This document shows positions 8,998-25,445 of a stretch of DNA of 25,445 nucleotides, one piece after another. The stretch's first letter is position 1, and every line of letters begins with the position of its first letter. This DNA is from a virus (Duplodnaviria > Caudoviricetes). The notes below the pieces were generated by a model that saw nothing but the letters and a program-made list of their open reading frames with translations, was not told where the DNA came from and did not search any database. The translations under genes and the position numbers were made by a program. The stretch covers positions 1-25,445 of IMG/VR virus record IMGVR_UViG_3300007988_000067; one strand, 5' to 3'.

Positions 8998-9014
8998 ATT
9001 ATATTCACCTCACT

Positions 9015-9852: not shown

Positions 9853-10175
9853 GATTTATTTTTTTTATTCATATTTCTAATCTTCTTAACTGCATTATAC
9901 AGTTCTAAATCAATATCTAACTCACTAAGCTTTTTATTCAACAATTCATTCACATGTTTATTTTGAAAAGAATGTCCTTTTTCAGTTTTTATATGAGGTC
10001 TTACAATTTCTGCAACTTTAGCAGCACTTTTATACTGTATATACAATTTGAAAATAACTGCAGGTTTATGATTCCAATCATTTTCATTAATAATCATTAG
10101 ATCTTTATATCTATGTAATTCACTTAACCTATTTCTTAGCTTTTTACATTCATCATCAATCCACATTTTAATCAC
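9849..10175 (-). CDS. Hypothetical protein, possible HTH
   Basis: 108 aa, LYIQYKSAAKVAE segment; start overlaps upstream stop. Confidence 0.7.
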   Translation of the reverse strand: MIKMWIDDECKKLRNRLSELHRYKDLMIINENDWNHKPAVIFKLYIQYKSAAKVAEIVRPHIKTEKGHSFQNKHVNELLNKKLSELDIDLELYNAVKKIRNMNKKNKS

Positions 10176-10556
10176 CTAATCTTGATATATGTAAAGTTAA
10201 TATCTTTTTTAATATTTTAATTTCTCTTAAAACTGCATCATCAAAATCATTCTTTTGGATTTCGATAATATATTCCTTAAAAAGTTTTAAGTTTTCTACG
10301 TATTCTTCACTTGTTTTTGGATTGAAAAAAGTATACTCAGTTCCTTTTTTTGTTGGCTTTTTAAATTTTTTAACTATAAATCCTTTTTCAAGTTCAACTA
10401 ACCACGCTGCCATTTTTAACAATTCATATCTTTTAAAATCTTCTTTAGATAATTTTAGCGTCATTAATTTATTATTTATACCTCCAGATATAACAGTAGG
10501 TTGCATTTTGATTCCTCCTTAAAATTTAGTTCATCATCAATCCACATTTTAATCAC
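10149..10556. repeat. Perfect 27-bp direct repeat (10149-10175 and 10530-10556) flanking the 112-aa gene
   Basis: TTCATCATCAATCCACATTTTAATCAC occurs twice; a degenerate longer copy lies at about 10757-10815. Confidence 0.9.
10168..10506 (-). CDS. Hypothetical protein
   Basis: 112 aa, AAGGAGG RBS. Confidence 0.75.
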   Translation of the reverse strand: MQPTVISGGINNKLMTLKLSKEDFKRYELLKMAAWLVELEKGFIVKKFKKPTKKGTEYTFFNPKTSEEYVENLKLFKEYIIEIQKNDFDDAVLREIKILKKILTLHISRLGD

Positions 10557-10719
10557 ATTCATTTACTAAATATGCACCAATACTCCAGTCTAAATCCCTT
10601 ACTTCCCCAAACTCATTATTGTCTATCTTATTTATCATCTTCATGCAAGCCTCTTCTTCATCATCTGCATCAACCTCAATAACAATTAGTTCTTGTGCTT
10701 CCACTCTATACTTAGCCAT
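10549..10719 (-). CDS. Small acidic hypothetical protein (56 aa)
   Basis: Not in ORF track; AAGGAGTG RBS; MAKYRVEAQELIVIEVDADDEEEACMKMINKIDNNEFGEVRDLDWSIGAYLVNECD. Confidence 0.75.
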   Translation of the reverse strand: MAKYRVEAQELIVIEVDADDEEEACMKMINKIDNNEFGEVRDLDWSIGAYLVNECD

Positions 10720-10820
10720 ATAATTTCACTCCTTAGAATATAAAAAATTAATTACGTATATATGTAACTCACTTTCTATCTTTCTTATTTTTTTCAATTC
10801 TTCATCAATCCAAATAATAC

Positions 10821-11090
10821 TTAAAACCTTTCTTGTATTTCTTCATTGTTACACCAAGTAAGTTTGTATTTTTTATCTTCTTCATGTAGTGCAAAACTAA
10901 CATTTTTAAAAACTTTATATCCTTCATCTAAAAGTCTATTAACATTCTCATTTGTACATTTTCGTATGTACACATAATTTAGCCCTTCATTTGCAGCTCT
11001 ATTTATTAGCTTTTTAATAGTACTGTATTCATTTAATATTGTTTTTCTTTCAAATTCCTCTTTTGTCATTTCATAAATTATTTTATTCAT
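10821..11090 (-). CDS. Hypothetical protein
   Basis: 89 aa, GGAGGTG RBS. Confidence 0.75.
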   Translation of the reverse strand: MNKIIYEMTKEEFERKTILNEYSTIKKLINRAANEGLNYVYIRKCTNENVNRLLDEGYKVFKNVSFALHEEDKKYKLTWCNNEEIQERF

Positions 11091-11093
11091 AAT

Positions 11094-11315
11094 TTACACC
11101 TCCGATAATTCATCTGATATCTTTCCTATTTGAAATTCTACAAATTGTAAAAAATCTTTTCTAACTTCACCATTAAGAAATATATACTCACTATCTGGTG
11201 ATTTTAATTTTAACCATTTTGTTTTTTCATCAGCATTTTGTTTTATTAAAAAATCTTCCATTTCTTTTAAATACTTTAACTTTTGATACAATTCTTCAAT
11301 TTGATTCCTTTCCAT
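11094..11315 (-). CDS. Hypothetical protein
   Basis: 73 aa, AGGAGGG RBS. Confidence 0.75.
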   Translation of the reverse strand: MERNQIEELYQKLKYLKEMEDFLIKQNADEKTKWLKLKSPDSEYIFLNGEVRKDFLQFVEFQIGKISDELSEV

Positions 11316-11503
11316 AATTCCCTCCTAAAAATGTGACATAAAACAGGAAGTGTTGCATTTTCTAAAACCCATTTTAAGCCGTTCAAATTCTCGCTTAGAC
11401 TTATATGACCTTTACGCTAATATGACACCTTTAAAACGAAGATATACAACCCATTTATTCTACACATTGTAATAATAAACCAAAAAAATATAAAAAAATA
11501 ATA

Positions 11504-12058
11504 CTACTTTCTTGTATACTTAAATTTCTTCATCTTTTTGTACTTATCGCTGTCTCTTAATCCAATGTATCTTAGTGTTTCCTCCGGATGACTATGATTA
11601 AGTATTTCTTTAAGAATCATAATATCTTTTGTATCATTATAGAAATGATACCCAAATGTTTTCCTCATTGAATGTGTACCAATACTACTAAGTCCAAATC
11701 TTTCAGCAACATCCTTTAATATTTTGTAAGCCTGTTGTCTTGATATTGCTGAATTTTCATTTTTTTGACTTTTAATTAAATACTCATAATCATTTTTATT
11801 TTTTAAATAACTTTTAAAAAATTCTTTTAAATCATCATTAATAGGTATTTCAATTTCTTTTTTAGTTTTAGATTCTGTGATTTTGATAGACTCTTTATTC
11901 CTAACATCCTTAACCTTTAATTTGAGAATGTCACCTATTCTCCTTGCTGTTGTTATTCCTAATGTGAATAGTACATAATCTCTTTGACTTGTGCTTTTAA
12001 GATACTCCTGAATGTCTAAAACTTTATTCATGTCTCGAATTGGTTCAACTTTGTTCAC
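11504..12058 (-). CDS. Small tyrosine recombinase (catalytic domain only)
   Basis: VEPIRD start, RRIGDIL (Arg), ESKTKK (Lys), GTHSMRKTFGY (HxxR), LNHS, TLRYIG (Tyr); GTG at 12058 after GGAGG. Confidence 0.92.
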   Translation of the reverse strand: MNKVEPIRDMNKVLDIQEYLKSTSQRDYVLFTLGITTARRIGDILKLKVKDVRNKESIKITESKTKKEIEIPINDDLKEFFKSYLKNKNDYEYLIKSQKNENSAISRQQAYKILKDVAERFGLSSIGTHSMRKTFGYHFYNDTKDIMILKEILNHSHPEETLRYIGLRDSDKYKKMKKFKYTRK

Positions 12059-12389
12059 GCTGATCAGCCTCCAACTCTTTTTCAATTACTACCATTGTTC
12101 TTTTCATCTTAAAATGCATATTGTCTAGTATTGATGTATGAGTAAATTTAAAAATCTTCTCTAATTGACCGCACATATTATATACATCCGATAATTCTAG
12201 CTCTATATCTTTTATAAACTCCTTTCTTTTTAATTCATCTTGACTACCAGACTCTTCAAAATTTTCAAATTTATTAAGAGCATCTTCAAGTTCATAAACT
12301 TCTTCTCTCCATTTATCTAATTGCTTCGATACTCCACAATGATTTATTGCTGTCTTTTGTGCTATCTCTATGTATTTTAACTTGTCCAT
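12045..12389 (-). CDS. MazG-like nucleotide pyrophosphohydrolase domain protein
   Basis: QLDKWREEVYEL...ELELSDVY matches the EE-x2-E / E-x2-D pattern of all-alpha NTP-PPases. Confidence 0.65.
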   Translation of the reverse strand: MDKLKYIEIAQKTAINHCGVSKQLDKWREEVYELEDALNKFENFEESGSQDELKRKEFIKDIELELSDVYNMCGQLEKIFKFTHTSILDNMHFKMKRTMVVIEKELEADQREQS

Positions 12390-12846
12390 ATTGTTCAACC
12401 CTCCAATCTTTAATATATTTTTTACATCTCTTTGTAACTATTACATTAGCCTTGTCTCTCAAAATCATACAATTACGCTTATCGTAAGTCATTTCAAAAC
12501 TTATTTTTTCCCAGTTCATTTTTTGTTTATATCTAAGATCTATAATTTTATGGCACTCCTCTGGAAGTCTATTTATAGAATTATTCAATTTACTCCTAAT
12601 TTTACTAAGCCTTTTAACTCTATCAGTCAATGTTTTTATATCCCGCTCATACTGAAATACTATTGATTCTACATGAGAGTTAACTTCTACTGAGTTTACA
12701 CATACATCTTTTATTACATTTGCTTTAAGTGATGATTTAATATCCTCAGTATCAGATATAAGCATCCTTAAATCATCTGTACTAGCTTTAATTTCATTGC
12801 ATATGTTAAGCCACTCCTCAAACACATCATATTTTCTCTTTTGCAT
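12313..12846 (-). CDS. ArpU/RinA-type (sigma region-4-like) late transcriptional activator
   Basis: INRLPEECHKIIDLRYKQKMNWEKISFEMTY...RDKA C-terminal HTH preceded by a coiled coil; end of early operon. Confidence 0.75.
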   Translation of the reverse strand: MQKRKYDVFEEWLNICNEIKASTDDLRMLISDTEDIKSSLKANVIKDVCVNSVEVNSHVESIVFQYERDIKTLTDRVKRLSKIRSKLNNSINRLPEECHKIIDLRYKQKMNWEKISFEMTYDKRNCMILRDKANVIVTKRCKKYIKDWRVEQYGQVKIHRDSTKDSNKSLWSIEAIR

Positions 12847-12896
12847 TTGAACCTCCACAATTTAATATATTGTCCAACATGCTTTCTTTTGTTTAT

Positions 12897-13222
12897 CTAT
12901 ATTTTTTTATTCAATTCATACTCGATGAGCTTATTAAAGTTTTTAACGCTAAGTTCTTTAAATCTTGTAAACATAATAATTTTAATCATACGCTTTTGGT
13001 TCATTTGCTTTGATACCTTCACTAATGCCAATGCGTTTATAAAACTTAGCTTATTTTTTTAATGCATTTAACAATTGCATTATCTAGCTTAAGTATGCTC
13101 AAATGCTTAGATACATCAGCCTGACTTATACCACATTCATCAGCAAATTTTTGTTGAGTTATACCTAGTTTTTGCAATTGCTTTTTATACCTTATTGCTC
13201 TGTCAATAAAGTGTTCTTCCAC
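12897..13222 (-). pseudogene. ParB/Spo0J-type HTH-only protein, frameshifted in an A7 run (13054-13060)
   Basis: GTG 13222: EEHFIDRAIRYKKQLQKLGITQQKFADECGISQADVSKHLSILKLDNAIVKCIKK; adding one A continues NKLSFINALALVKV...Q...LSVKNF to TAG 12897 (108 aa). Confidence 0.7.
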
Positions 13223-13223
13223 A

Positions 13224-13502
13224 TTAATTCAGCTCCTCAACATACTCTATTTTTATGCCCAGAGTATGACTTAAAATATCAAAACCTGTACTTGTTAAAG
13301 CATAATCTTTTGATTTGAAACCATAATGATTTTTTGTAATTTTTTCACGCATTAACTCACATTCTATTAATTTTTCAAGGTCCTTACTCCAGGAATAGCA
13401 ATTATAAAAATTGCGTTTTGTTTTAAATTCTTCATCGTAACCATTATGTAAATCAAAGCCTATTGCTATTTTCATGATGTTTATTTGCTTTTCTGTTAAC
13501 AT
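13224..13502 (-). CDS. Hypothetical protein
   Basis: 92 aa directly after the initiator gene; IMKIAIG...RNFY motif. Confidence 0.75.
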   Translation of the reverse strand: MLTEKQINIMKIAIGFDLHNGYDEEFKTKRNFYNCYSWSKDLEKLIECELMREKITKNHYGFKSKDYALTSTGFDILSHTLGIKIEYVEELN

Positions 13503-13513
13503 GATTTACACCA

Positions 13514-14422
13514 TCAAGAATAATACTTATCAAGATCATCTTCGCTATAATCACGCTGATCAAAGTTGTTAATCTGCTCAACTTTATTTGCATCACTTGG
13601 CGCTTTAACATTTGAGAAGTTATCACCCAGGTAATCAATATATCCGGTTCCAAAAAACGTACTTCCGTGTTGGTATTCTTGCCAAGATGGTTTGTATCTT
13701 ACGTATCTTTCAATGCAACGTTTGATTATATCAAACCCATGCTTATGAATTTCCTTCTTGGTCTTAAGACTTACCTTTCCCTTCCCTTTTTGGTTTGGAT
13801 ATAGTGACCACAAACTTTCAAACATTTGGTGCACATCTTTATTTGATTTATTTTCTTCGTGCATGACCTCATGCACAATATCTTTTATTTTTTCTTTTTC
13901 TTTTTCTTTTTCTTTTTCTTTTTCTTTTTCCCCCGAGTCTCTACATACAATATCAACACTGTCACCACACTCTATGGACACAGTGTCCACACTGTCACTT
14001 TTTTCTGTTTCTTTAACATCTTTTTTATCATCATCATTCTCTGTATAATGCTTTAATAGATGATTTGCACATTCTCTAAATATTTTTGATTTAATTGCAT
14101 CAATCTCTTTTTTAATACAATTAATTACACTTGGACTTCTGCTAAAATTATGTTTAAACCAGTTAAGAATTATAAGCTCATTAGTTTTGGTGTCATATTT
14201 AATTTTTTGATACTCTTGAAATCTTACAATTAACTTATCAATAGTATCTTTTGTATATCCTGTTTCCATTTCTATAACTCTTTTTGATATTTCATAAACA
14301 CCACATTGTGTTGTTTTAGTATTTGTCATTAAATATATGTAAAAAAACTTTTCTTCTGGTGTAAGATCTAATACAAAAGGGTCTTGCCAAAAACTTGTTT
14401 GTAAATGTCTATAAATAGCCAA
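13514..14422 (-). CDS. Phage replication initiator / replisome organizer
   Basis: MAIYRHLQTSFWQDPFVLDLTPEEKFFYIYLMTN...CGVYEI N-terminus, KE-repeat linker, FESLWSLYP...HGSTFF C-domain; TTG 14422 after GGAGG. Confidence 0.9.
   Translation of the reverse strand: MAIYRHLQTSFWQDPFVLDLTPEEKFFYIYLMTNTKTTQCGVYEISKRVIEMETGYTKDTIDKLIVRFQEYQKIKYDTKTNELIILNWFKHNFSRSPSVINCIKKEIDAIKSKIFRECANHLLKHYTENDDDKKDVKETEKSDSVDTVSIECGDSVDIVCRDSGEKEKEKEKEKEKEKIKDIVHEVMHEENKSNKDVHQMFESLWSLYPNQKGKGKVSLKTKKEIHKHGFDIIKRCIERYVRYKPSWQEYQHGSTFFGTGYIDYLGDNFSNVKAPSDANKVEQINNFDQRDYSEDDLDKYYS
13889..14000. repeat. Probable phage replication origin inside the initiator gene
   Basis: ACACTGTCAC twice and dyad TGGACAC-A-GTGTCCA next to a (TTTTTC)7 tract at 13889-13930. 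Confidence 0.55.
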
Positions 14423-14471
14423 GCTTATCCCTCCTAGTTCTTTTGTAAAAAGGGGCATAATGACCCTTTAA

Positions 14472-15191
14472 CTATGCAATTATTTCAACTTTATCCTTAT
14501 ACTCCTGGAGTTGCTCTTCTAGATATGCTTTAATTCTCATCATTGTTTCTAATTTCCATGCTCCACCATCGGCTTCAAAAATTGCAGCTACAGGTCCGTT
14601 TTTCATTCTGAATATAAACTTACTTTCAACTTGCTCAATTTCCTGAAATGTTCTATATGGAATAAGTGATACTGGATTAGGTACTTTAACATTTCCAACA
14701 GTTGCAATTCCTGTTTTAGCTGTTACTTGTTGACTTACTCCATCGTCACCAGTTTCTCTTATATTTTCTTCTTTAATTGTACCTATTACTTTTAGAATTT
14801 GTGCCGAATCTTCATTTTGAACAAATGCTGATTGCATCATAATATTAAAGTTTTCTGTATCTAAAAATCTTTCAAACTCTATATGTGGTGTTTTTGATTG
14901 TGCTGCCATTAATAAATCTCTACTACCATCAAACTTTAGTGGTGACCTTACTATTACGGTTTCATGATTACTTACATGAATGATTAATTTTTCACTTATC
15001 TTATCAAAGTTTGATTTCACATAATCGATTATAGAATTGAGTGTATTTGTTTTTAAAGACTCTTTAACTATATCTGATACATGATTCAATTTCTTTGTTG
15101 TATAAGTTTGACAATTAATTTCTACTAACTCATTTTTATCCATACCCACTAAGTACTGCAACGCTTCTTTAATCATTTGTAATTCCTCCAA
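14472..15191 (-). CDS. Conserved phage protein
   Basis: 239 aa; DDGVSQQVTAKTGIA, VPNPVSLIPYRTFQEIEQ, FEADGGAWK; usual partner of the upstream gene in Firmicute phages. Confidence 0.85.
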   Translation of the reverse strand: MEELQMIKEALQYLVGMDKNELVEINCQTYTTKKLNHVSDIVKESLKTNTLNSIIDYVKSNFDKISEKLIIHVSNHETVIVRSPLKFDGSRDLLMAAQSKTPHIEFERFLDTENFNIMMQSAFVQNEDSAQILKVIGTIKEENIRETGDDGVSQQVTAKTGIATVGNVKVPNPVSLIPYRTFQEIEQVESKFIFRMKNGPVAAIFEADGGAWKLETMMRIKAYLEEQLQEYKDKVEIIA

Positions 15192-15199
15192 TATGTATT

Positions 15200-15559
15200 T
15201 TATTTAACTGCTTTTAATTTTTGACTTTCTATAACTTCCCCTGTATCATAGTCAATTTGCGTTTGTCCAAATAATTGACCTTTGATAAACTCCTCTGCGA
15301 CTACATTCCCATCATTGTCTTGTCCAATGTAAATTTTTGTTCCAAGACTCTTAACTGGTGCCAATTTTGTTTTACATTGAATATCAATATTGCTTTCTTC
15401 CCTATCATCATTAGGTTTAAAAGTAAGTTTAATATTCAACTCTCTTTTTGCAATAGATGAAGTGTTAGGATCTGCAATGTTGTTTAAAACTTCCTGAAAA
15501 TTTAAGTTTATTTGCTCTTGCACTGCACCATTTACCATTTCAAATAAATTTAATGACAT
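15200..15559 (-). CDS. Conserved phage protein (often labelled replication terminator protein)
   Basis: GAVQEQ...VLNNIADPNT...KRELNIKL...KTKLAP motif. Confidence 0.8.
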   Translation of the reverse strand: MSLNLFEMVNGAVQEQINLNFQEVLNNIADPNTSSIAKRELNIKLTFKPNDDREESNIDIQCKTKLAPVKSLGTKIYIGQDNDGNVVAEEFIKGQLFGQTQIDYDTGEVIESQKLKAVK

Positions 15560-15604
15560 GCCTATTCCTCCTTAGTATTTAATATTTTTTTATAGTTAAA
15601 ATGG

Positions 15605-15928
15605 TTAATCTTTTTTAACATCAGCCATTTTAAAAACTTCAACTTTTTTACCATCATCAGCAATTACTTCATCACCTTTACCCATGTGTCCAAATAATCC
15701 ATAAGCAGCCCAATTACATCCATACCTACTATCTCTTTCAAATGTACCTTTCCCATTATGTCTACCTATACAATCTACATAAGCACTGTTACTATCTGCA
15801 CCAGCATCAATAAAATCTTTAACAGTAGATACTTTTTTACATGCAGGACATTCAAAAGCCCATGTATTTGTGTCCTTGCCAAACCTGTTTTTTAGTTCTT
15901 CCAACCATTGTTTTTTTGTATATTCCAT
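15605..15928 (-). CDS. VVA0879-family putative Zn-binding phage protein
   Basis: RFGKD...WAFECPAC, CIGR, GCNWAAYGLF motifs. Confidence 0.7.
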   Translation of the reverse strand: MEYTKKQWLEELKNRFGKDTNTWAFECPACKKVSTVKDFIDAGADSNSAYVDCIGRHNGKGTFERDSRYGCNWAAYGLFGHMGKGDEVIADDGKKVEVFKMADVKKD

Positions 15929-16129
15929 CTAATTCACGTCTCCAATTCTATGATATCTATGCCATTCAATATTCGCTGCCATAATGTCAACCATCGTTTC
16001 TTCAAAAATTTTCTTAATATCAATCAAATCGTTATTATGTAGTGTATTTATTGCAAATTGCCATTCCTTTTGATTAAAACTTCCCACTAATTCTTTAACC
16101 TTCTCCTGTAGTTCTTGCATCCAAATCAC
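15929..16129 (-). CDS. Hypothetical protein
   Basis: 66 aa in operon context, AAGGAGTG RBS. Confidence 0.65.
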   Translation of the reverse strand: MIWMQELQEKVKELVGSFNQKEWQFAINTLHNNDLIDIKKIFEETMVDIMAANIEWHRYHRIGDVN

Positions 16130-16167
16130 TCCTTAAAGTTTTTGTAGTGCAGAACTCCCCAAAAGTA

Positions 16168-16335
16168 TTAATTAATTTTACCTAGTATCTCTTTTGCTCT
16201 CTCAATTTTCTTTTTTCTTATTTGTTCATCCAGCCTAATATTAATCACCATCGATATAATAAAAACAGTTACTAATACTACAAATACTCCTACTTGTTGC
16301 TCATAATTCAAATTTGCTAAAAACTCATAATTCAT
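16168..16335 (-). CDS. Small single-TM membrane protein (55 aa)
   Basis: Not in ORF track; ATGA overlap with upstream stop; MNYEFLANLNYEQQVGVFVVLVTVFIISMVINIRLDEQIRKKKIERAKEILGKIN. Confidence 0.65.
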   Translation of the reverse strand: MNYEFLANLNYEQQVGVFVVLVTVFIISMVINIRLDEQIRKKKIERAKEILGKIN

Positions 16336-16520
16336 TTTAACGCCCTCACTTCTTCAAATTCTTTATGTAATATAACTACTAAAATTGCTAACACTGGAAG
16401 TAAACACTCTCCTCCAAAAGCAACATATCCCCTACTTTGATTCACATAATTATGTAAAAATAGCGTGACTAATAGGGATAAAATTATTGATAACTTATCC
16501 CAACTCAACTTTCTTTTCAT
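16332..16520 (-). CDS. Small two-TM membrane protein
   Basis: Two hydrophobic segments around RGYVAFGGE; start set from GGAGG RBS. Confidence 0.7.
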   Translation of the reverse strand: MKRKLSWDKLSIILSLLVTLFLHNYVNQSRGYVAFGGECLLPVLAILVVILHKEFEEVRALK

Positions 16521-16674
16521 TTTCATGTCCTCCATCGTATGCCAAAGCAACTACTTCATCTTCACCAATTCCATAAAAAAGCATGTCCAAAACAAGTAAA
16601 AATTCATTTTCATTTTTCTCATTAGTTTTTCTAAATGCCATTAAGGCATATGCTCTAGCTTGGTTTTTGTCCAT
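16495..16674 (-). CDS. Hypothetical protein (59 aa)
   Basis: Not in ORF track; AAGGAG RBS; MDKNQARAYALMAFRKTNEKNENEFLLVLDMLFYGIGEDEVVALAYDGGHENEKKVELG. Confidence 0.65.
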   Translation of the reverse strand: MDKNQARAYALMAFRKTNEKNENEFLLVLDMLFYGIGEDEVVALAYDGGHENEKKVELG

Positions 16675-16699
16675 TGTAAGTGCTCCTTATTTTTTGAAT

Positions 16700-17011
16700 T
16701 TAAATACATTTGAGTTCTAAATTCTTACTTCTAAAATAATTAATACTTTTAACCAATTGCTCTATTAGCGCTTCACCAATTAATTTAATAGATGATATAT
16801 CCCTGGCCACAAAATCCCATTCTATATTCGTTACTTTTCCAATTTTATTCTCAACTTGGTACCTTAAATCTTCTGGATCTTCTTCTACATATTCCTTAGT
16901 TATAATAAAATTCGGACTTTCAATTATTTTTGAATCCTGCATAAATTCATCATCAATATGAACTGTTATTCCTTGTTTAGTTTTAAAAGTATGAATTATC
17001 ATTTTTATCAC
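16700..17011 (-). CDS. Hypothetical protein
   Basis: About 100 aa; GAGGTG RBS favours the ATG at 17002. Confidence 0.7.
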   Translation of the reverse strand: MIKMIIHTFKTKQGITVHIDDEFMQDSKIIESPNFIITKEYVEEDPEDLRYQVENKIGKVTNIEWDFVARDISSIKLIGEALIEQLVKSINYFRSKNLELKCI

Positions 17012-17237
17012 CTCTATACATACTATGTTTTTTATTACTTACAAGTTCTGATAAAATAGAATTATTTAGCAAAAGCACCTCCAAATCACTTTAAAATATT
17101 AATCCAATAACCCATTTTTCACCTATTTACTTTTTATATTTAATTTCAATTGATACACTTTGTTTATTTTGTAAATTTATGGTTAAATCTTTCTAAGAAA
17201 CTTTTTGTTAAATTTGGGGAAATATGGTTAAATGTAT

Positions 17238-17453
17238 TTAAGCACCTTTTTGTTCAAACAGCTCTGCAAAAAGATACTTAATATCATGCTCTGGGAAAAA
17301 TGTATCTCTTATGTCGTATGCTTGTTTAAGAGAAATTTCACTTTTTCCTGTTAATTTATTAATACCAGTTTTGTAACTCATAGAAGCTGATTCATAAATT
17401 TGCTTTTTAGATAAACGCTTTCTAGCTATTTCTGCCTCGAGATTTACATACAT
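17238..17453 (-). CDS. Cro-like XRE HTH regulator
   Basis: MYVNLEAEIARK...NKLTGKSEISLKQAYDIRDTFFP...YLF; first gene of the early operon, divergent from the repressor. Confidence 0.88.
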   Translation of the reverse strand: MYVNLEAEIARKRLSKKQIYESASMSYKTGINKLTGKSEISLKQAYDIRDTFFPEHDIKYLFAELFEQKGA

Positions 17454-17484
17454 TACAAAAAACCTCCTAATACATCTCGAATTT

Positions 17485-17606
17485 GTTACGCAATACGTAA
17501 CTTGTTAGTATAATATTACAACTTGCGTAAAAAATCAAGCATATTTATGAAAATAATTATCCTTTGCGTAACTTTGTTGCATATGTATGCTTTTATATTG
17601 GATAAT
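17485..17606. promoter_or_regulatory. Lysis/lysogeny switch: three operators and divergent promoters
   Basis: 15-bp dyads TTACGCAATACGTAA (17486-17500), TTACAACTTGCGTAA (17516-17530), TTATCCTTTGCGTAA (17557-17571); leftward TTGATT-17-TATTAT, rightward TTGCAT-18-GATAAT. Confidence 0.75.
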
Positions 17607-17611
17607 GTTAA

Positions 17612-18025
17612 TTGTATATATTTAGGGAGGTGATTTTTATCAGTTCAAATATAGGTTTAATTTTAAAAAAGTTAAGAAAATCTAGAAACCTTACACTAGA
17701 TTCAGTAGCTGAATATTTTGGTACAACAAAAGCTACTATAAGCAGATATGAAACTGGTAAACATGTTCCTGATGTACAACTGTTAATTAAAATGTCTAAA
17801 TACTATGATGTTAGCATGGATTATATAGTTGGTATTAATGAAAATATTTATACAAGTCTAGAATTAGCAATAATTAATAAAATCCAAAAATTAAACAATG
17901 CTAACCAAAATCAAGTTTTAGGTATGATTAATTATATGCTATCTGATAAAAATAATTGCTTTACTGCGGCATCACCAGAATTATGTGTAGCTGAAAATAC
18001 TGCTAAATATATAAAAAAAATATAA
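17612..18025 (+). CDS. CI-like XRE-family repressor
   Basis: LKKLRKSRNLTLDSVAEYFGTTKATISRYETGKHVPD...YYDVSMDYIVG; no S24 peptidase domain; start uncertain. Confidence 0.9.
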   Translation: MYIFREVIFISSNIGLILKKLRKSRNLTLDSVAEYFGTTKATISRYETGKHVPDVQLLIKMSKYYDVSMDYIVGINENIYTSLELAIINKIQKLNNANQNQVLGMINYMLSDKNNCFTAASPELCVAENTAKYIKKI

Positions 18026-18061
18026 TATATGTAAAATTTATATAAAAATTAGTAATTAAAG

Positions 18062-18919
18062 GTGGTTGTTGATTTAATGTTAAGAAATAATTATAAAATA
18101 AAGGGTACAAATTCAAACACAGGACGAAAAAAAACTTTATCTATTAAAGCGTTCTCAAATGAAGAGTGCTTAGAATTAGCAAGTAATGAAGGTCTAGTTG
18201 AACCTTTTGAAATTTCTTTAGAAGAATCACTACCCCCTACTGAAGCACAATTAAGTTATGCTAAATATTTAAAAATAAATATCCCAAAAAATATAACAAA
18301 AGAGGAAATATCATTCTTAATTGATAGAGTTAAATACAAGGATAAATCAGAACCAAATCCAGAACTTATAGAATATGCTGAATCAATGAATATTGAATTT
18401 TCTAATTATGTTGGTAAAAAACAATTATATGATATTATTTGGGATTCTTTGTATGGTTTAGATAAAATCGAATTCTTTATTTTCTGTGTATATAGATGGA
18501 TTTCAGATGATAGACATGGCAACTTGTTAACTCATAAGTGTAAAGATAAATTTAATTGTTTTGCCAAAATTTTAATAGATGATAAGAGTTTTATTAATTC
18601 TCTTGCTAAGAGTTATGATGAAGGTAAAAGTATCAGATTTTTTGGTACGTTATATGTTGGTAAAAATCAATATACTGGCGGAAGTACAATTACACAAGCT
18701 TATAAAACAGTAGTAAAATTTTTAAAAAAAGAATTTGGATTAAAAAACAGGACTTTTAAATATTTAAAAGACGAATCTACATATAATATGAATTCTAGTG
18801 ATTATGGAAAAATTGATTTTAAAGAATTTTGGAAATCTAAAAACAAATTAAAATATTTCTTAAAAAAGCTTAAAGAAGATTTGATTATAAAATCAAATAA
18901 AAAAACTTTCAAAAAATAA
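18062..18919 (+). CDS. Hypothetical lysogeny-module protein
   Basis: 285 aa between repressor and integrase; PTEAQLSYAKYLKINIP motif partly repeated (PNPELIEYAESMNIEF). Confidence 0.8.
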   Translation: MVVDLMLRNNYKIKGTNSNTGRKKTLSIKAFSNEECLELASNEGLVEPFEISLEESLPPTEAQLSYAKYLKINIPKNITKEEISFLIDRVKYKDKSEPNPELIEYAESMNIEFSNYVGKKQLYDIIWDSLYGLDKIEFFIFCVYRWISDDRHGNLLTHKCKDKFNCFAKILIDDKSFINSLAKSYDEGKSIRFFGTLYVGKNQYTGGSTITQAYKTVVKFLKKEFGLKNRTFKYLKDESTYNMNSSDYGKIDFKEFWKSKNKLKYFLKKLKEDLIIKSNKKTFKK

Positions 18920-18932
18920 CTTAGATGAAACT

Positions 18933-19024
18933 AAACCTGTTATAGAAAAAGTCATAAAACTTGCGAAAATAGTGATATTGATAGTTTAGACCATTTCGAG
19001 CAGACGCACGATATGGTTCAAATA
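18933..19024 (+). pseudogene. dinD: Fragment of a DinD-like (DNA damage-inducible protein D) gene
   Basis: Two frames read KPVIEKVIK / CENSDIDSLDHFEQTHDMVQI, resembling the DinD motif VI.KAK.ACENS...DHF...MV.I; no start, frameshifted. Confidence 0.45.
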
Positions 19025-19083
19025 AAAAAACTTGAAACTAAAAATTTTTAAACATCATTGAATAACAAAATTAAATCTAGTAA

Positions 19084-19120
19084 AATAAAAAAGACTCCGA
19101 GCGAAGGATTCTTTTTTATT
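19084..19120. terminator. Bidirectional terminator upstream of the integrase
   Basis: AATAAAAAAGA-CTCCGAGCGAAGGAT-TCTTTTTTATT. Confidence 0.65.
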
Positions 19121-19219
19121 ATGACAATAACTTTATTTTAAAAAACACTTTCACCATTGAAAGCTTAAAAATATATTACTATTTTTTCTCGGTGAAGTCA
19201 AGAAAGGGAAGGCAGTAAT

Positions 19220-20704
19220 ATGTATTGTATTTATCTTAGAAAGTCTAGAAATGATGAAGGAACTATTGAAGAAACTTTGGCTAAGCATGAGAAAATACTT
19301 CTTGAATTATCCAAAAAACAAAAATTATCAATATCAAAAATATATAGAGAAGTTGTATCTGGTGAAACTATTGCCTCTAGACCTGTTATGCAACACCTTT
19401 TATCCGAGCTTGAAAAAGAATTGTGGGAAGGTGTTCTTGTTGTTGAGGTTGAGAGACTTGCGAGGGGTGCTACTCTTGATCAAGGAATCATGGCACAGGC
19501 TTTTAAATACTCTAGTACTAAAATAATTACTCCACTCAAAACATATGATCCGAATAATGAATTTGATGAAGAGTTTTTTGAGTTCAATCTTTTCATGTCT
19601 AGAAGAGAATATAAAACTATTAATAGAAGATTGCAGCAAGGTAGACTGGCAAGCGTAAAAGAAGGCAGATATCTTGGCAGTATAGCACCATATGGATACA
19701 ATAAAACAAAAACAGAAGATGGGTTCACTCTTGAACCAGATCCTGATGAAGCACCAGTAGTTAAAATGATATTTGATTTTTACACTAAAGAGAGACTCGG
19801 AGTATCTAAAATAGTTCGGAAGCTTAACGACATCGGAATCAAAGCTAGAAAGGGAAATTGGACTACTTCTACAATTCAAGGAATGCTTAAAAATCCTGTT
19901 TACATAGGTAAAATTCGATGGAACTATCGTAAGACTATAAAACATGTTATTGATGGTAAAGTTGAATCAACTAGACCGAAGAATAAAGAATTTGAGCTAA
20001 CAGATGGACTTCACGTACGCTTAATTGATGATGAAGTGTTTTATACTGCTTTGAATTATATAAATCAAAATAGAGCCACTCCAGCTCCTAAAAACCAACC
20101 AATTAAGAATGTTTTAGCAGGAATAGTCAAATGTGGATTATGTGGTAGAAATATGGTTAGGAGACCTTATGGAAATCTAAAACAAGAAGATACTCTAATG
20201 TGTGCATATACTGATTGCAAAAATGTTAGCTCTCCCCTATCTTTGATTGAAAAAACAATTATAGATAACTTGAAAAATTATAAATTTAATAAAAAATCTC
20301 AGAAAAATATAGTTAATACCGAATTGCTAGAAAAAAATATGAATGATATAGATAGTGAAATAGAAACTTTAAAAAAACAAAAGGACTCACTGCATGACCT
20401 TCTGGAACAAAACGTTTATGACACAAATACATTTTTAGAGCGTTCCAAAAAACTGAATGAAAAAATTAAAAAACTCGAGGAAAATAAATTTAACATAGAA
20501 TCAGAATTGAAGTCTTTTAAAAACCAAAATATTATCATTCCGAAGATAACAAAACTAATTAATTCTTATGATAAAATAAGCATCAAAGATAAAAATGAGA
20601 TGTTAAAAACTATACTAATCAGAGTCGAATACCTAAAAAAAGAGAAAGCACTCAAAAAGAATGCCTCCCACAATGTCGATTTAAAGCTATTCCCTCGAAT
20701 ATGA
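19220..20704 (+). CDS. int: Large serine recombinase (integrase)
   Basis: YLRKSR (catalytic Ser), ERLARG, recombinase domain APYGY...LKNPVYIG, Zn ribbon CGLCG...C, coiled coil. Confidence 0.96.
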   Translation: MYCIYLRKSRNDEGTIEETLAKHEKILLELSKKQKLSISKIYREVVSGETIASRPVMQHLLSELEKELWEGVLVVEVERLARGATLDQGIMAQAFKYSSTKIITPLKTYDPNNEFDEEFFEFNLFMSRREYKTINRRLQQGRLASVKEGRYLGSIAPYGYNKTKTEDGFTLEPDPDEAPVVKMIFDFYTKERLGVSKIVRKLNDIGIKARKGNWTTSTIQGMLKNPVYIGKIRWNYRKTIKHVIDGKVESTRPKNKEFELTDGLHVRLIDDEVFYTALNYINQNRATPAPKNQPIKNVLAGIVKCGLCGRNMVRRPYGNLKQEDTLMCAYTDCKNVSSPLSLIEKTIIDNLKNYKFNKKSQKNIVNTELLEKNMNDIDSEIETLKKQKDSLHDLLEQNVYDTNTFLERSKKLNEKIKKLEENKFNIESELKSFKNQNIIIPKITKLINSYDKISIKDKNEMLKTILIRVEYLKKEKALKKNASHNVDLKLFPRI

Positions 20705-20750
20705 TAAGGTTAAGGAACTGATTCCTCTGTTCCTTAACCTTATCATATTC
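20697..20750. repeat. Perfect 22-bp inverted repeat with 10-bp spacer, probable intact attP
   Basis: GAATATGATAAGGTTAAGGAAC-TGATTCCTCT-GTTCCTTAACCTTATCATATTC overlapping the integrase stop; no U-tract on either strand. Confidence 0.7.
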
Positions 20751-20786
20751 ATTTAACTCACTTTGATTGAAAAATACAGATTTCTT

Positions 20787-21671
20787 TCATATTTTATAGA
20801 ATTCAAACTTTTCACATTTTCTAAATATAAATTTACTATTAACCCATCTTGCCATACGTTTAGTTAACTCTGGTGCATTCCATTTTTCAAATATCATAAT
20901 ATATGGGTCATAGCCTAATTCTTTAAGCTTATATATTCTATACAGGTCTTGTTCATGTGTTGTGTTAAAGTTAGTTAAAACATAAACTCGCAATTTTCTA
21001 AAGTCTACTTGTGTAGCTTTTTTAAATTGTTTTAAATTATCAATTATTACATCTGAATTATCTATCATATCCCATGCAAAGTGTAACATTTTAATTTTTA
21101 TTTGTTGTAATTTTTCTGTAATCTCCTCATTAAGTAATCTAGCATCTAACCCTTGTGTAAAATCAACCCACGATTTACTTTCTATAAGTTGATTTAACAA
21201 ATCTAATCTATCTTTGCTTCCTAAAATATTGGGATCTAAAAGTTTAATGTTTTTTTGACCATTCCAAAAATTATTCAAATCATTAACTTTATAACTTTTT
21301 TTACCTTCTTTTTCCGCAACAATACAAAATGGACACGCTCTAGGACAACCTCTAGTCAGAAAACCATATGCAGTGTTTTTAAATTTTACATTATCATACA
21401 ATTTATAGTCTGGAAACATATTTTCTATTTCAATAGAAAGGGTATTTTTTAAATCATATCCCGTCCCACCTCTTAATATTTTTGGTGCATTTATTAAATA
21501 TTCAAAATCATTTGTAAAAGTAAAAACTTTAGATTGATACACTAGATCATATTTTTTAAAAAGATCTACAAATTCAACTTGATGCCCTTGCACCTTGTGA
21601 TAAGCTGATATTTTCATTAATGCTAAATTAGGGAAATTGTGTCCATCTACATCTATCAATCCTATTTTCAT
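20787..21671 (-). CDS. Phage-type radical SAM protein
   Basis: TRGCPRACPFC (CxxxCxxC), N-terminal DVDGHNFPNLALMKISAYHK, FTQGLDARL. Confidence 0.88.
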   Translation of the reverse strand: MKIGLIDVDGHNFPNLALMKISAYHKVQGHQVEFVDLFKKYDLVYQSKVFTFTNDFEYLINAPKILRGGTGYDLKNTLSIEIENMFPDYKLYDNVKFKNTAYGFLTRGCPRACPFCIVAEKEGKKSYKVNDLNNFWNGQKNIKLLDPNILGSKDRLDLLNQLIESKSWVDFTQGLDARLLNEEITEKLQQIKIKMLHFAWDMIDNSDVIIDNLKQFKKATQVDFRKLRVYVLTNFNTTHEQDLYRIYKLKELGYDPYIMIFEKWNAPELTKRMARWVNSKFIFRKCEKFEFYKI

Positions 21672-21682
21672 AATATCCTCCT

Positions 21683-22906
21683 CTACCCTACAAGGGTTTT
21701 ATCCATCTCTAAAATTATAGTCTTTCCACCTTCGCTTTTCAATGTACCTTCTTCTTCTAACCAAGCTTTAATTTTTCTGCATTTTTCTTGACTCAATGAT
21801 GTATTCTTACTAATTTTAATATAACCTGGACTAACTAATTCTCCATCTGATTCAGTTGCATTTTCATACATATATTTTAGGTACTCTTCTACTTCAATAC
21901 TCTTAAAACTTTTAGGTGTTTTTTTAGGTGGAAAATCGCTAGAAGCTACTAGGCTTAAAGACCGATTAGCTTTTGCTAGATTAATATTTTCAAAATTAGG
22001 CTTAATATTAGGCTTAATTATTTTAAAGTTATTAGGCTTAATATTCTCAAAATTAGGCTTAATTTCATAATCAGTTGTTTTTTTAGTTGGTCGATTAGGT
22101 GTATTACCTAATTGTAACTGCCCAAGGTTAATAACCCTGGACAAATACATTGTTATGATTGCGATAAACTCAAATATTACTGATAATCCCATGAAAAAAT
22201 ATAGTTCAATTTCATCAGCTGAGATAGTTGTTTCTCTAAATTCATCTTGATTAATCTTATCAGCTACAATAGAGAATATAGCACTATATCCATTAGTCTT
22301 ATTTACATTAAGTGTACTTACATCAATTGGAGTTTCTAATTTATTACCAAGTTGAACTAATTCTTTATTCTTCTCACTGATCATGTTTTGCATTTCACTG
22401 CTTTTATTATTAATCTCAACCTGCAGATTTTCTTTCCTGGTAAAATAGTTGGCAGGGTAGGAGTTCTTAACTTTTGTCATTTCTTCAATTTGTGATGAAT
22501 AATTCGACTTAATACTTTCAATTTCTTGTTGTTTCGCAGTGTATAAATCTTTTTGAATACCTTTTCCTTCTTCGGCTTGTTTAAATGCAGAAGAGTGCTT
22601 TAGTTCAAGATTCTTAGTCTTATTAGTCATGTTTTGTATGTAGCCTGCAGATGCAACAATAGAGGAGAGGAGCAACAAAATACTAATTACACCCATAGTC
22701 ACTCTTACAGCTATATTCAAACGAGTATTTGTTAACGCTTCATTAAAAAATCCTACCTTACACACTTCTAACATTATTGCCATTCCAATAGTTAACCCAG
22801 TTGCAATAAATCCAACAACTGCACTTGTCATTAATATAATTGTAAATATTGCTGATACAACGAAAGCTAAATAACTAAATGTTTTAAGTAGAGTAGGGTT
22901 ATTCAT
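21683..22906 (-). CDS. Membrane protein: 3 N-terminal TM, coiled coil, fourth TM, repeat linker, C-terminal winged-helix-like domain
   Basis: Hydrophobic segments in the first ~90 aa and near aa 235-257; IKPN repeats; PGYIKISKNTSLSQEKCRKIKAWLEEEGTLKSEGGKT resembles a wHTH. Confidence 0.8.
   Translation of the reverse strand: MNNPTLLKTFSYLAFVVSAIFTIILMTSAVVGFIATGLTIGMAIMLEVCKVGFFNEALTNTRLNIAVRVTMGVISILLLLSSIVASAGYIQNMTNKTKNLELKHSSAFKQAEEGKGIQKDLYTAKQQEIESIKSNYSSQIEEMTKVKNSYPANYFTRKENLQVEINNKSSEMQNMISEKNKELVQLGNKLETPIDVSTLNVNKTNGYSAIFSIVADKINQDEFRETTISADEIELYFFMGLSVIFEFIAIITMYLSRVINLGQLQLGNTPNRPTKKTTDYEIKPNFENIKPNNFKIIKPNIKPNFENINLAKANRSLSLVASSDFPPKKTPKSFKSIEVEEYLKYMYENATESDGELVSPGYIKISKNTSLSQEKCRKIKAWLEEEGTLKSEGGKTIILEMDKTLVG
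21950..22063. repeat. Intragenic repeat cluster ATTAGGCTTAAT x4 plus one TAGGCTTAA
   Basis: Copies at 21995, 22007, 22031, 22052; 9-bp core also at 21950-21958. Confidence 0.85.
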
Positions 22907-23088
22907 TATATCACCTCCAAATGATTAGCTATGTCGCCTTTATATATGCCTTGTTGCCATTGAACATTGTTGCCTTTGAATGTAACACCTAGAGCTTTGA
23001 TTAATTCATTAGAAGTGATATTAAGAAATAGTGCATCATTACCAGATTGCTTTAACAACAATAATTCCATAGATCCATTTTTAAACAT
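22906..23088 (-). CDS. Small hypothetical protein (60 aa)
   Basis: AGGAGG RBS; stop overlaps the ATG of the membrane protein gene. Confidence 0.75.
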   Translation of the reverse strand: MFKNGSMELLLLKQSGNDALFLNITSNELIKALGVTFKGNNVQWQQGIYKGDIANHLEVI

Positions 23089-23152
23089 AATAATTCCTCC
23101 TAAAAGTATATTTTTTATTTGCCCTTAGGAGATTAATCTGATAAAATTATTC

Positions 23153-23232
23153 AGAACGGTCTCACTAGGGACTTGTTTATTTGAAAATGTAGTCACGTCT
23201 TCTTGTCAGGGAGTGGGTGGCTGCATTTTTAT
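23153..23232 (+). ncRNA. Predicted counter-transcribed (antisense) RNA in the leader of the membrane-protein operon
   Basis: Plus-strand promoter TTGCCC(23119)-17-TAAAAT with TG extension; ends in hairpin AAAATGTAGTCAC...GTGGCTGCATTTT (fully paired only on plus, via G-U) and a T-run. Confidence 0.55.
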
Positions 23233-23233
23233 T

Positions 23234-23416
23234 TTAGTCATCATTCTTGCTAGAGTTATTCTCTAAATATTTTTCCAAATCTTCTTTTTTTATTCTCCAT
23301 AGCTTACCAACTTTATACCCTATTAAAGCACCTGAATCAATTTCTTTCATTACAGTTTGCTTACCTATCCTTAAATAATCTGCAACTTCTTCAAGTGTTA
23401 ACATTTTATTTTCCAT
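23234..23416 (-). CDS. Excisionase-like / HTH_17 DNA-binding protein
   Basis: MLTLEEVADYLRIGKQTVMKEIDSGALIGYKVGKLWRIKKEDLEKYL; ATG 23416 after GGAGGTG. Confidence 0.9.
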   Translation of the reverse strand: MENKMLTLEEVADYLRIGKQTVMKEIDSGALIGYKVGKLWRIKKEDLEKYLENNSSKNDD

Positions 23417-23436
23417 ATTGCTCACCTCCAATGTTT

Positions 23437-23542
23437 ATTATATCACCATATTATATATATCGTCAATATGTTAAGTTATGTTTAGTTATATTTAATACTA
23501 TTTTATGTTATTATTGCATTTTTTAGTTAAGTATATTATATT
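23437..23542. promoter_or_regulatory. Divergent sigma-A promoters with intervening 10-bp tandem repeats
   Basis: Leftward TTGACG-18-TATAAT with TG (23437-23466); rightward TTGCAT-17-TATATT (23514-23542); TATGTTAAGT TATGTTTAGT TATATTTAAT at 23467-23496. Confidence 0.65.
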
Positions 23543-23568
23543 TTATTACGATAGATGTTACGAGCAAT

Positions 23569-23638
23569 AAAAAAAGAGAGTCTCTGACTGGAATCAGAAA
23601 ACTCTCTGGGTGATTAGAAATTGGATAACCCCTAATCA
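23569..23638 (-). ncRNA. Predicted counter-transcribed RNA in the rep leader
   Basis: Minus-strand promoter TTGTGT(23668-23673)-17-TACAAT with TG extension; covers hairpins GGTGATTAG/CTAATCACC and AGAGAG...CTCTCT and ends in T7. Confidence 0.6.
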
Positions 23639-23687
23639 CCTCGTATTGTATCAAATGTTTGTAAAAAACACAATAGGAGGGTTTTAC

Positions 23688-24554
23688 ATGTCTAAAACTA
23701 TAATGAGAGTAGCAAAAAACAAAGATAATCCATATTTAATGCTTAATAAAACATCAATTCAGGATTCAAAACTCAGCTGGAAGGCAAAAGGACTACACGC
23801 ATATCTATTATCACTACCAGATGATTGGAAAATATATGTTGAAGAATTAACTAAACACGCAAAGGATGGAAAGGATAGTACAAAAGCAACTATAAATGAA
23901 CTTGAAAAAATGGGTTACATATCAAAAAACAAATTAAGAGATGGTAGTGGAAGGTTTAAAGGATATGAATATATTATCTTTGAAGTTTCAACAGAAGTGA
24001 TAGAGCCAACTTCACCGAAAGCGGAAAAACCGTTTACGGAAAATCCAGAAACGGATAAACCGTTAACGGAAAACCCGCAACTAGTAATTAATAATAATAC
24101 TAATAAATTACTTAAACTAAATAATAACATCATCAAGGAATCAGGTAAGGATATAAATGTCTCAAGTAAAAAAACTGATGATGAATCTAACACTTTTAAT
24201 GCTTTAAATAACACAAACATGTTAGAAAATAACGATAGCAGTTATATAAACAACATCTTAGTCGATAGAATGACTTTTATGTATAATGCTACTCTATGTG
24301 CAAACGCAGAACATACTTATATTAAATTTTTAATTTCAAAATACGGAGAAAAGAAACTTATAGAAGCTTTGACAGCTTGGAAAGATAGAACGAAGAATTG
24401 TAATATCTTGAATGTTGCAGGATATTTTAAGACAATGTTAGAAAACGGAACTGTTAATCACGTTGAAAAAGTAGGAGCATCAAGAGTAGAGCAGTGTAAC
24501 AACTTTGAGCAAAGAGAGTATAGTGAAGAAGAGTTAAAGCAATTTTACGCTTAA
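23688..24554 (+). CDS. Second replication initiator (HTH replisome-organizer type)
   Basis: RVAKNKDNPY...IQDSKLSWKAKGLHAYLLSLPDDWKI...DGKDST...ELEKMGYI; internal iterons; ATG 23688 after AGGAGG (upstream extension in the ORF track is leader). Confidence 0.88.
   Translation: MSKTIMRVAKNKDNPYLMLNKTSIQDSKLSWKAKGLHAYLLSLPDDWKIYVEELTKHAKDGKDSTKATINELEKMGYISKNKLRDGSGRFKGYEYIIFEVSTEVIEPTSPKAEKPFTENPETDKPLTENPQLVINNNTNKLLKLNNNIIKESGKDINVSSKKTDDESNTFNALNNTNMLENNDSSYINNILVDRMTFMYNATLCANAEHTYIKFLISKYGEKKLIEALTAWKDRTKNCNILNVAGYFKTMLENGTVNHVEKVGASRVEQCNNFEQREYSEEELKQFYA
24015..24130. repeat. Four 15-bp iterons plus AT-rich tract: probable origin of the second replicon
   Basis: CCGAAAGCGGAAAAA CCGTTTACGGAAAAT CCAGAAACGGATAAA CCGTTAACGGAAAAC (24015-24074), then AATTAATAATAATACTAATAAATT. 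Confidence 0.7.
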
Positions 24555-24569
24555 TAAAAAAATGAGAGG

Positions 24570-25010
24570 ATGATTGGAATGGATATTAATAATTTAACGT
24601 TTAAAAAGCCTGAAAGTGGAGCATGCCCTTACTACATAAATGACAATGTTAAATATTATATTACGGATGAAAAGGATGGTAGTGAATATAAGTATATCCT
24701 AGTAAGCCAAATTATTGAAAAACCTAGGCTTATTAAGTTAGATGGTGCATATCATGTAGAATGGATGGAAAAAAACATTAAAGATTATAGTATAAACAGT
24801 AAACTAACACGCTACTGGGATGGAATCGTGTTTGAAGATAAGAAATATAACTATTTCGCAACTAAAGAAAGAATAAACATCGTAACGTTAACTAAAAAAT
24901 GTTCATGGGGATTTGATAACTACGTTGATTGCTTAAATCATGCAAAGGAATATATCTATAAGATTATGCAAAAAAAAGAGCCAGAACAGTTGATGTTTAA
25001 TATATTTTAA
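24570..25010 (+). CDS. Hypothetical protein
   Basis: 146 aa directly downstream of the second initiator; ends EQLMFNIF. Confidence 0.75.
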   Translation: MIGMDINNLTFKKPESGACPYYINDNVKYYITDEKDGSEYKYILVSQIIEKPRLIKLDGAYHVEWMEKNIKDYSINSKLTRYWDGIVFEDKKYNYFATKERINIVTLTKKCSWGFDNYVDCLNHAKEYIYKIMQKKEPEQLMFNIF

Positions 25011-25032
25011 AATAAACTATTCTAAATATGAG

Positions 25033-25063
25033 TTTAAAAAGAGCCTTAAATGGCTCTTTTAAA
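25033..25063. terminator. Bidirectional intrinsic terminator
   Basis: AAAAAGAGCC-TTAAAT-GGCTCTTTT between convergent genes. Confidence 0.75.
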
Positions 25064-25157
25064 ATCATTTTTAAAAAATGAATCAACGATACTTAACAAA
25101 ATTAGATAAACTCATTACAGCGAAAACAGTTAAAAGCTACTAAAAATATGAACTTAC

Positions 25158-25445
25158 TCATAAAATCTTCGGTCTTATATTGTTATCTTTTAAAGTGTCT
25201 TCAATTCTTTTCAAAGATTTTTTTAGGCTGTCAAAATCCTCAATTGTTGCATATAGGGAAACAGAATCATTCTTTTTTGTTATTTTGTCTTCGGAATCGT
25301 TATTTTTTTCTTTGATTTTGATATTAAAGTATCTTAAAATAGCTTTTCCGTGTGCTTCTCCAATTTTTTGTATCTCGTGTGCTTCATCCATTTTTTTATA
25401 ATCGTCAGAATCAATAAACCCTGATTCGCTCAAACATGCAATAGC
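25158..25445 (-). CDS. N-acetylmuramoyl-L-alanine amidase (Amidase_3) endolysin, 5' partial
   Basis: Frame open to the window edge: AIACLSESGFIDS...IGEAHGKAILRYFNI matches the Amidase_3 A-x-L-x-E-x-GF-x-D catalytic strand and terminal helix; same strand as the late genes. Confidence 0.75.
   Translation of the reverse strand, partial: AIACLSESGFIDSDDYKKMDEAHEIQKIGEAHGKAILRYFNIKIKEKNNDSEDKITKKNDSVSLYATIEDFDSLKKSLKRIEDTLKDNNIRPKIL

Follow-up and report, generated by a model that had tools for sequence, protein, structure and literature searches.

A divergent six-gene unit lies between attP and the lysis genes

The window studied here—25,445 nt, corresponding to positions 1 to 25,445 of the IMG/VR virus record IMGVR_UViG_3300007988_000067—belongs to a temperate tailed phage with a low GC content (~30%), whose genes for capsid, portal, terminase, a DnaD-like early-operon initiator, a repressor and a large serine integrase were assigned by Pfam and PHROGs. 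Between its attP-like site (20697–20750) and the endolysin gene sits a divergent 4.2-kb unit. The rightward arm encodes a second initiator (hereafter Rep), placed outside the CI/Cro early operon, followed by a 146-aa orphan. The leftward arm comprises, in this order, an HTH_17 gene, a 60-aa open reading frame (ORF), a gene for a 407-aa protein with four transmembrane (TM) helices, a coiled coil and a winged helix, and a radical SAM gene. A first-pass annotation of the window had drawn the same layout, and our ORF calls reproduced the coordinates and orientation of all six ORFs; the lysis gene was confirmed by an overlapping viral contig (L001; 99.99% identity to the window), which runs on into genes for a holin and an endolysin, the latter 235 aa long. 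Every one of the six frames is open, the promoters, repeats and terminators are likewise intact, and the GC content of the unit (27–31%) is similar to that of the backbone. Here and below, statements on genome content cover 32.9 kb of the 41.3-kb phage genome, with ~8 kb lying outside.

The two arms diverge from a region (23437–23545) containing a strong leftward promoter (11/12 consensus) and an AT-rich array with a 10-bp period, which is a possible operator; the periodicity reached p ~0.011 in a single test of a region picked by eye. At the other end, a bidirectional terminator-like hairpin (25036–25061; fold z = −5.2) closes the rightward arm, as the first-pass annotation had it, and marks the boundary with the lysis operon.

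Such a self-contained divergent design, with terminators at both ends and resembling the HTH_17/rep pair of plasmid pCALKR01 (see below), could stem from a small independent plasmid or satellite that fused into the phage and is able to resolve and replicate alone. The first-pass annotation had raised this option as a hitchhiking element, and many homologs of the 407-aa protein do sit on short contigs of 1–15 kb, which are possibly mere fragments. We nevertheless regard an independent element as unlikely. None of the six genes encodes a recombinase, relaxase or packaging protein, and the hallmarks of a phage satellite or phage-inducible chromosomal island—an integrase and att sites of its own, or packaging-hijack families (Pfam, PHROGs)—were not found inside the unit, the phage integrase following the repressor gene instead. 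In agreement with the earlier failure to see flanking direct repeats, the unit boundaries hold nothing longer than a 10-mer. Contigs from six aquifer runs, one of which may be the source sample, contained no empty-site or circle joint at the unit ends, the joints listed having ≤23 letters on the short side; searches with the integrase or the endolysin found no sister phage with an empty slot; and neither the 407-aa protein nor the 60-aa ORF had a match among 72,556 plasmids. Contig depth in X2 was ~7.7 over the unit versus ~7.9 over the backbone, which is not a measure of copy number.

Rep carries a putative origin within its own gene

The first-pass annotation started rep at GTG 23610; the likely start is ATG 23688, giving a protein of 288 aa (23688–24554, plus strand). 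Its N-terminal domain is HTH_36/DnaD-like, matching PHROGs initiators and PF13730 (E 1.8e-5; 24.9 bits at a cut-off of 25). Pfam returned HTH_36 alone, just below the cut-off, and no RepA_N domain. Judged by sequence, Rep has a phage-type fold and is no plasmid-specific Rep, which is a correction to the first-pass annotation. Its final 25 residues share 56% identity with the C-terminal tail of the lytic initiator encoded in the early operon (13514–14458, minus strand; phrog_6251, E 4e-52).

The iterons and AT-rich tract ascribed to rep withstood closer inspection. A putative origin (24022–24130, plus strand) consists of four 15-bp units at 24022–24081, arranged as A-B-A'-B' with alternate units differing by 2 and 4 mismatches, and, directly after them, a tract of 88–90% AT (24081–24130). 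These four putative Rep boxes lie centrally within rep, as RepA_N (pSK41-type) replicons require. The lytic initiator gene itself holds a GAAAAA-type tandem repeat (L001:18971–19029; window ~13880–13940), at which assemblies break in several runs. Downstream of rep, the 146-aa orphan (24570–25010, plus strand) ends in a QLMF motif, which we take to resemble a sliding-clamp-binding motif; it had no relative outside its own cluster, no homolog and no Atlas match.

Both arms contain a predicted antisense RNA in a leader

An antisense RNA had been proposed for the leader of each arm. Folding and promoter patterns predict both, with the left one located between the HTH_17 gene and the 60-aa ORF rather than at the head of its arm. 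Predicted antisense RNA 1 (23566–23673, minus strand) has a promoter at 23673–23645 and an RNA spanning ~23638–23566, with two stem-loops and a U-tract. Its predicted counterpart, antisense RNA 2 (23119–23235, plus strand), has a promoter at 23119–23147, an RNA spanning ~23154–23230 and a terminator. Both leaders thus combine an opposite-strand promoter, a structured predicted RNA of ~75 nt and a terminator, with the extended −10 promoter ~80 nt ahead of the terminator in each. The TTG-N17 extended −10 pattern, written post hoc, occurs exactly twice in the window, namely in these two leaders. On the opposite strand, the folds scored z = −5.07 (rep leader) and z = −5.12 (left intercistronic leader), placing both among the most stable in 900 strand-windows scanned over 7400–25445; for the left leader the strong fold is confined to that strand (mRNA strand, z = −1.09). 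An Rfam scan gave no match for the antisense RNAs, its sole match being a chance one on the attP hairpin.

Each leader also holds a hairpin masking the next Shine-Dalgarno sequence; in rep, folding models place it at 23637–23683 (plus strand), sequestering AGGAGG at 23675–23680. In the left leader, modelled Shine-Dalgarno accessibility fell from 0.33 when free to 0.05–0.07 when the antisense target was blocked. For rep, accessibility fell from 0.34–0.46 to 0.17–0.18 if the RNA covers up to 23630–23638, the modelled direction of the effect depending on the 5' end of the antisense RNA. Promoter position suggests a start near 23637–23639. A type I toxin–antitoxin arrangement, with a short hydrophobic toxin behind an antisense RNA, does not match the left arm, where the 60-aa ORF is not hydrophobic by inspection and the membrane protein is 407 aa long.

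Relatives of Rep occur as second initiators in other phages and stand alone on plasmids

The closest described parallel to the rep arm comes from replicons of the pSK41 and pPR9 type. According to the accessible portion of one study, pPR9 combines an initiator with a PF13730-type N-domain and the pSK41 antisense control region, and its mini-replicon replicates autonomously (PMC5703833). In RepA_N replicons of the pSK41/pSK1 kind, as the same portion describes, the DNA-binding domain of the initiator is N-terminal, four boxes lie centrally in rep, and an antisense RNA with two stem-loops causes the leader to conceal its ribosome site; that RNA is ~83 nt long, as against the ~73 nt predicted here (PMC5703833). 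Rep shares the type of N-domain with the pPR9 initiator, though the match is weak (E 9e-7; residues 24–130; 29%) and leaves the C-terminal part of the pPR9 protein unmatched. Rep further differs from the pSK41 and pPR9 initiators in being phage-borne and without a RepA_N Pfam match, and a second predicted antisense switch controls the membrane protein of the unit.

Across databases, the Rep N-domain matched 347 phage and 256 plasmid records, many of the latter prophage-like, and none over 80% of the length of Rep. Two plasmids carry stand-alone Reps of the same family with the same CGGAAAA-type repeats: a 13-kb Brevibacillus plasmid, on which rep lies beside ParA, and pCALKR01 (NC_014719, from Caldicellulosiruptor), on which it diverges from an HTH_17 gene. 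The latter plasmid also resembles our unit in having an antisense terminator-like hairpin in the leader, but it exists as a free plasmid and does not encode the membrane protein, and its HTH_17 protein is 144 aa long with a coiled coil, as against 60 aa here. The Par protein of pSK1 is likewise a coiled-coil protein.

Among phages, three complete genomes of clostridial type (G006, G007 and G008) encode a same-family initiator near the lysis genes together with ParA (G006, L184:69–794 and 4716–5748; G007, L187:9504–11353); no tyrosine or serine recombinase was found in any of them. In G006 and G007, both read gene by gene, a separate lytic initiator serves the early operon. Since the rep regions of G007 and G008 are nearly the same, the three phages represent two lineages. 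They share with the window phage a separate, putatively plasmid-state initiator by the lysis genes beside the lytic one; the window phage differs in keeping a serine integrase and attP, in lacking ParA in the part seen and in having an uncharacterised membrane/winged-helix gene in the unit. The G006 rep region recurs on a 39,760-bp contig of a Ruminiclostridium metagenome-assembled genome (L021), whose approximate phage length suggests a free circle. The same N-domain, whole or short, also adjoins terminase or portal genes in L101, L112, L114, L135 and L136. Two further candidates for dual-initiator phages, L170 and G010, gave no clear case.

The left arm encodes a predicted membrane protein under a recurring leader arrangement

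The first gene of the left arm (23234–23416, minus strand) encodes a 60-aa, Xis/MerR-like DNA-binding protein (PF12728, E 1.5e-16). The following 60-aa ORF (22906–23088, minus strand), which matched no family or sequence, has a stop overlapping the start of the 407-aa gene and is likely, from this arrangement, a translational-coupling leader. The 407-aa protein (21683–22906, minus strand) was assigned three N-terminal TM helices, a coiled coil, a fourth TM helix, a disordered linker and a C-terminal winged helix by hydropathy and an AlphaFold model (pLDDT 65). Its last 60–70 residues resemble CRP/GntR winged helices, the best match (E 0.048) not being significant, and a fold search of the model against the PDB yielded nothing at E ≤ 1e-3. 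A profile search placed the protein in a family of 267 clusters (E ≤ 1e-3), with no convincing Pfam or PHROGs name; Atlas look-alikes are hypothetical proteins from phages and bacteria. Beyond this phage, no close relative was found in viral contigs, metagenome contigs, species genomes, plasmids or phages, nor in 399 genomes of one class, a search that had no positive control and left 2 more genomes unscored. Weak A3-profile matches in L129 (confined to the coiled coil) and L160–L169 (a short C-terminal stretch) are probably noise and were not counted.

The genomic context of the membrane family rests on one distant homolog (E 2e-12), the sole relative with readable surroundings. It is encoded by G001, a circular phage of 55.9 kb that has a 251-bp terminal repeat and lacks both integrase and ParA. 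There, an opposite-strand promoter and a terminator separate the membrane-protein gene from a small RHH-like gene ahead of it, and the same modelled switch lowers Shine-Dalgarno accessibility from 0.49–0.59 to 0.29. This single recurrence of a small DNA-binding gene, an antisense leader and a membrane protein argues that the switch is real. As in our unit, the G001 arm is divergent from one with a same-family rep, accompanied there by a G39P-like loader. Further along the membrane-gene arm (L177:4615–10370), G001 encodes an SNF2-like helicase, a PAPS-reductase/DUF3440 protein and a ParB-N protein.

The radical SAM protein (20787–21671, minus strand; 294 aa; phrog_9298, E 1e-121) has a 65% identical relative in one early operon and another relative in the early operon of G006; by these occurrences it is a typical phage early-operon gene, and both it and the 146-aa gene are likely passengers.

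The slot between lysis genes and attP commonly holds exclusion genes expressed in the lysogen. Its position would thus suit a unit for exclusion or defence, in which the membrane protein keeps superinfecting DNA out, or Rep together with its repeats hampers related phage-plasmids, and tight antisense control would be fitting for a toxic membrane protein. We consider this very improbable: the tool results contained no defence family (PADLOC not searched), and a complete origin with an AT tract would be superfluous.

The unit may be a carrier-state replicon

On balance, we lean towards the unit being a carrier-state (plasmid) replicon, making the window phage an integrative phage-plasmid that persists as a low-copy circle when not integrated. 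By analogy, the unit most likely works like an antisense-controlled replicon of the pSK41/pPR9 type, without belonging to RepA_N. Rep would bind the four repeats within its own gene and open the AT tract, while its C-terminal tail would recruit host replication proteins. The ~73-nt antisense RNA would pair with the rep leader and free the anti-Shine-Dalgarno arm, closing the ribosome site and setting copy number, as in pSK41 and pPR9. The HTH_17 protein probably regulates the divergent promoters, and the second antisense RNA would hold down the levels of the 60-aa leader and of the membrane/winged-helix protein coupled to it. In the weakest step of this scheme, the latter protein would substitute for ParA by tethering phage DNA to the membrane, as we infer from G001 having neither ParA nor an integrase. 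Phage phi29 p16.7, with a DNA-binding domain and a membrane anchor, acts in DNA positioning and replication. For S. aureus RicO, the available part of a preprint reports the same combination in a protein that positions or replicates DNA (bioRxiv 10.64898/2026.03.06.710092). Both are functional analogies only, the 407-aa protein having four TM helices and a C-terminal winged helix and no sequence or fold match to either. A G001-like phage-plasmid lacking an integrase is the probable source of the block.

The dual-replicon idea of the first-pass annotation is thus supported by comparison—by the second initiators accompanied by ParA in G006, G007 and G008 and by the pPR9 precedent—with the activity of this Rep being putative. 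Several observations weigh against it. The best phage matches of Rep are lytic DnaD-like initiators. In crude ORF calls, the upstream ORF was co-oriented in 135/169 loci of the initiator family, as in ordinary early operons, implying that the usual use of the family is lytic; in G001, rep lies ahead of the G39P-like loader and is therefore at least partly lytic. In 33/154 distinct loci, including several ordinary or lytic early operons, the initiator is preceded by a terminator-like antisense-strand hairpin, so the earlier use of antisense leaders to divide plasmid from lytic initiators was too strong. Antisense pairing up to 23641–23645 would, in the model, open the rep ribosome site (0.51–0.73) instead of closing it. 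In a quick, unfinished tree of 95 N-domains, this Rep did not group with the ParA-linked ones and fell into a weakly supported group together with Legionella plasmid Reps and one lytic initiator. The 32.9 of 41.3 kb covered yielded no ParA, a partition system being expected, though not strictly required, of phage-plasmids; according to the available part of one survey, in many plasmid prophages neither a replicase nor a partition system can be recognised (PMC7969092). Finally, the complete six-gene set was seen in this phage only: of the gene set sought elsewhere, the initiator recurs on plasmids and phages and the HTH_17/rep pair on pCALKR01. An N-terminal K[TS]-hydrophobic-hydrophobic-R motif, defined post hoc and not used as evidence, occurs in 10/95 Reps, including both plasmids and all phage-plasmid-like cases, and in 0/35 loader-linked ones.

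Alternatively, the block could be a recently captured piece of the control and replication core of another, G001-like phage-plasmid, sitting in the moron slot with a silent or idle initiator and inherited antisense switches. Two divergent arms of the same kind are found at the lytic/maintenance switch of G001, radical SAM is usually an early-operon gene, the Rep tail resembles that of the lytic initiator, and no second phage with the whole set was found. Yet the unit is intact throughout and matches the backbone in GC content, and in other phages second initiators of this family are retained at the lysis end. We rate such an idle remnant as the main rival reading, clearly behind the active carrier-state replicon.

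Phage setting and insertion target

Virion, packaging and lysis genes of the phage are present (terminase, portal and capsid by Pfam; holin and endolysin on L001). The endolysin 3' end lies at 25158–25445 (minus strand), and the gene is complete in L001:7042–7749 (phrog_435, E 3e-43). A 41,278-bp metagenome contig agrees with the window phage across the 14.2 kb compared. All 19 sequencing runs listed are aquifer metagenomes, with at least half of the window words present in 7/19, and the listing contained no RNA data set. GC content and the kinship of the matches indicate a probably clostridial host.

The large serine integrase (19220–20704, plus strand; Pfam Resolvase, Recombinase and Zn ribbon; phrog_95) is followed by an intact 25-bp inverted repeat (20697–20750; arms 96% complementary), by its form most likely an intact attP. 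Assemblies show it uninterrupted, and virion DNA would look alike. A truncated Mn_catalase gene directly follows two integrases of 49–51% identity to that of the window (L192:4085; L193:9605–10134), and one attP arm, read on the minus strand, encodes Gly-Thr-Glu-Glu, the same four residues as at the L192 junction. Members of this integrase group hence appear to target an Mn-catalase (CotJC-like) gene at these codons, and we infer the same target for the window phage, in which case lysogeny may interrupt a spore-coat gene. A C. difficile prophage adjoining a CotJC-like catalase gene is described in the accessible text of one report (PMC11222575).

Elsewhere in the window, a non-coding hairpin of great stability on both strands (8601–8680; z −11.5 and −9.1) lies ahead of the packaging genes. 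Between the early operon and terminase are genes for a short (193-aa) tyrosine recombinase (11504–12085) and for a NUMOD4/HNH endonuclease (9015–9524). The repressor–integrase interval holds a 285-aa gene (18062–18919; phrog_20233), a possible defence moron, with the lowest GC content (24%) among 13 genes compared.

Implications

Dual-lifestyle phage-plasmids are already known. The available parts of two studies report phage-plasmids that alternate between integrated and plasmid states (PMC7969092) and an integrated C. difficile prophage with plasmid genes (PMC10993401). The potentially new part is the membrane family under a recurring antisense switch; the literature searched (main texts, with sparse coverage of subscription papers) contained no paper on it or on the six-gene set. 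The locus suggests that an initiator family for which lytic and 'DnaD-like' are the usual annotations also provides second initiators of plasmid type, and that a so far unstudied family of membrane DNA-binding proteins may replace ParA. More tentatively, and with considerable doubt, the four-TM/coiled-coil/winged-helix family could represent a new kind of maintenance system, free of ATPases and under antisense control, by which plasmid prophages are tethered to the membrane; paired here with a copy-controlled replicon, it would let the phage live on in circular form once excised from a sporulation gene, or where the host offers no free attB. Integration into the Mn-catalase/spore-coat gene combined with persistence as a circle, if both occur in this phage, would show how such prophages can survive excision, and the unit could yield a new clostridial replicon.

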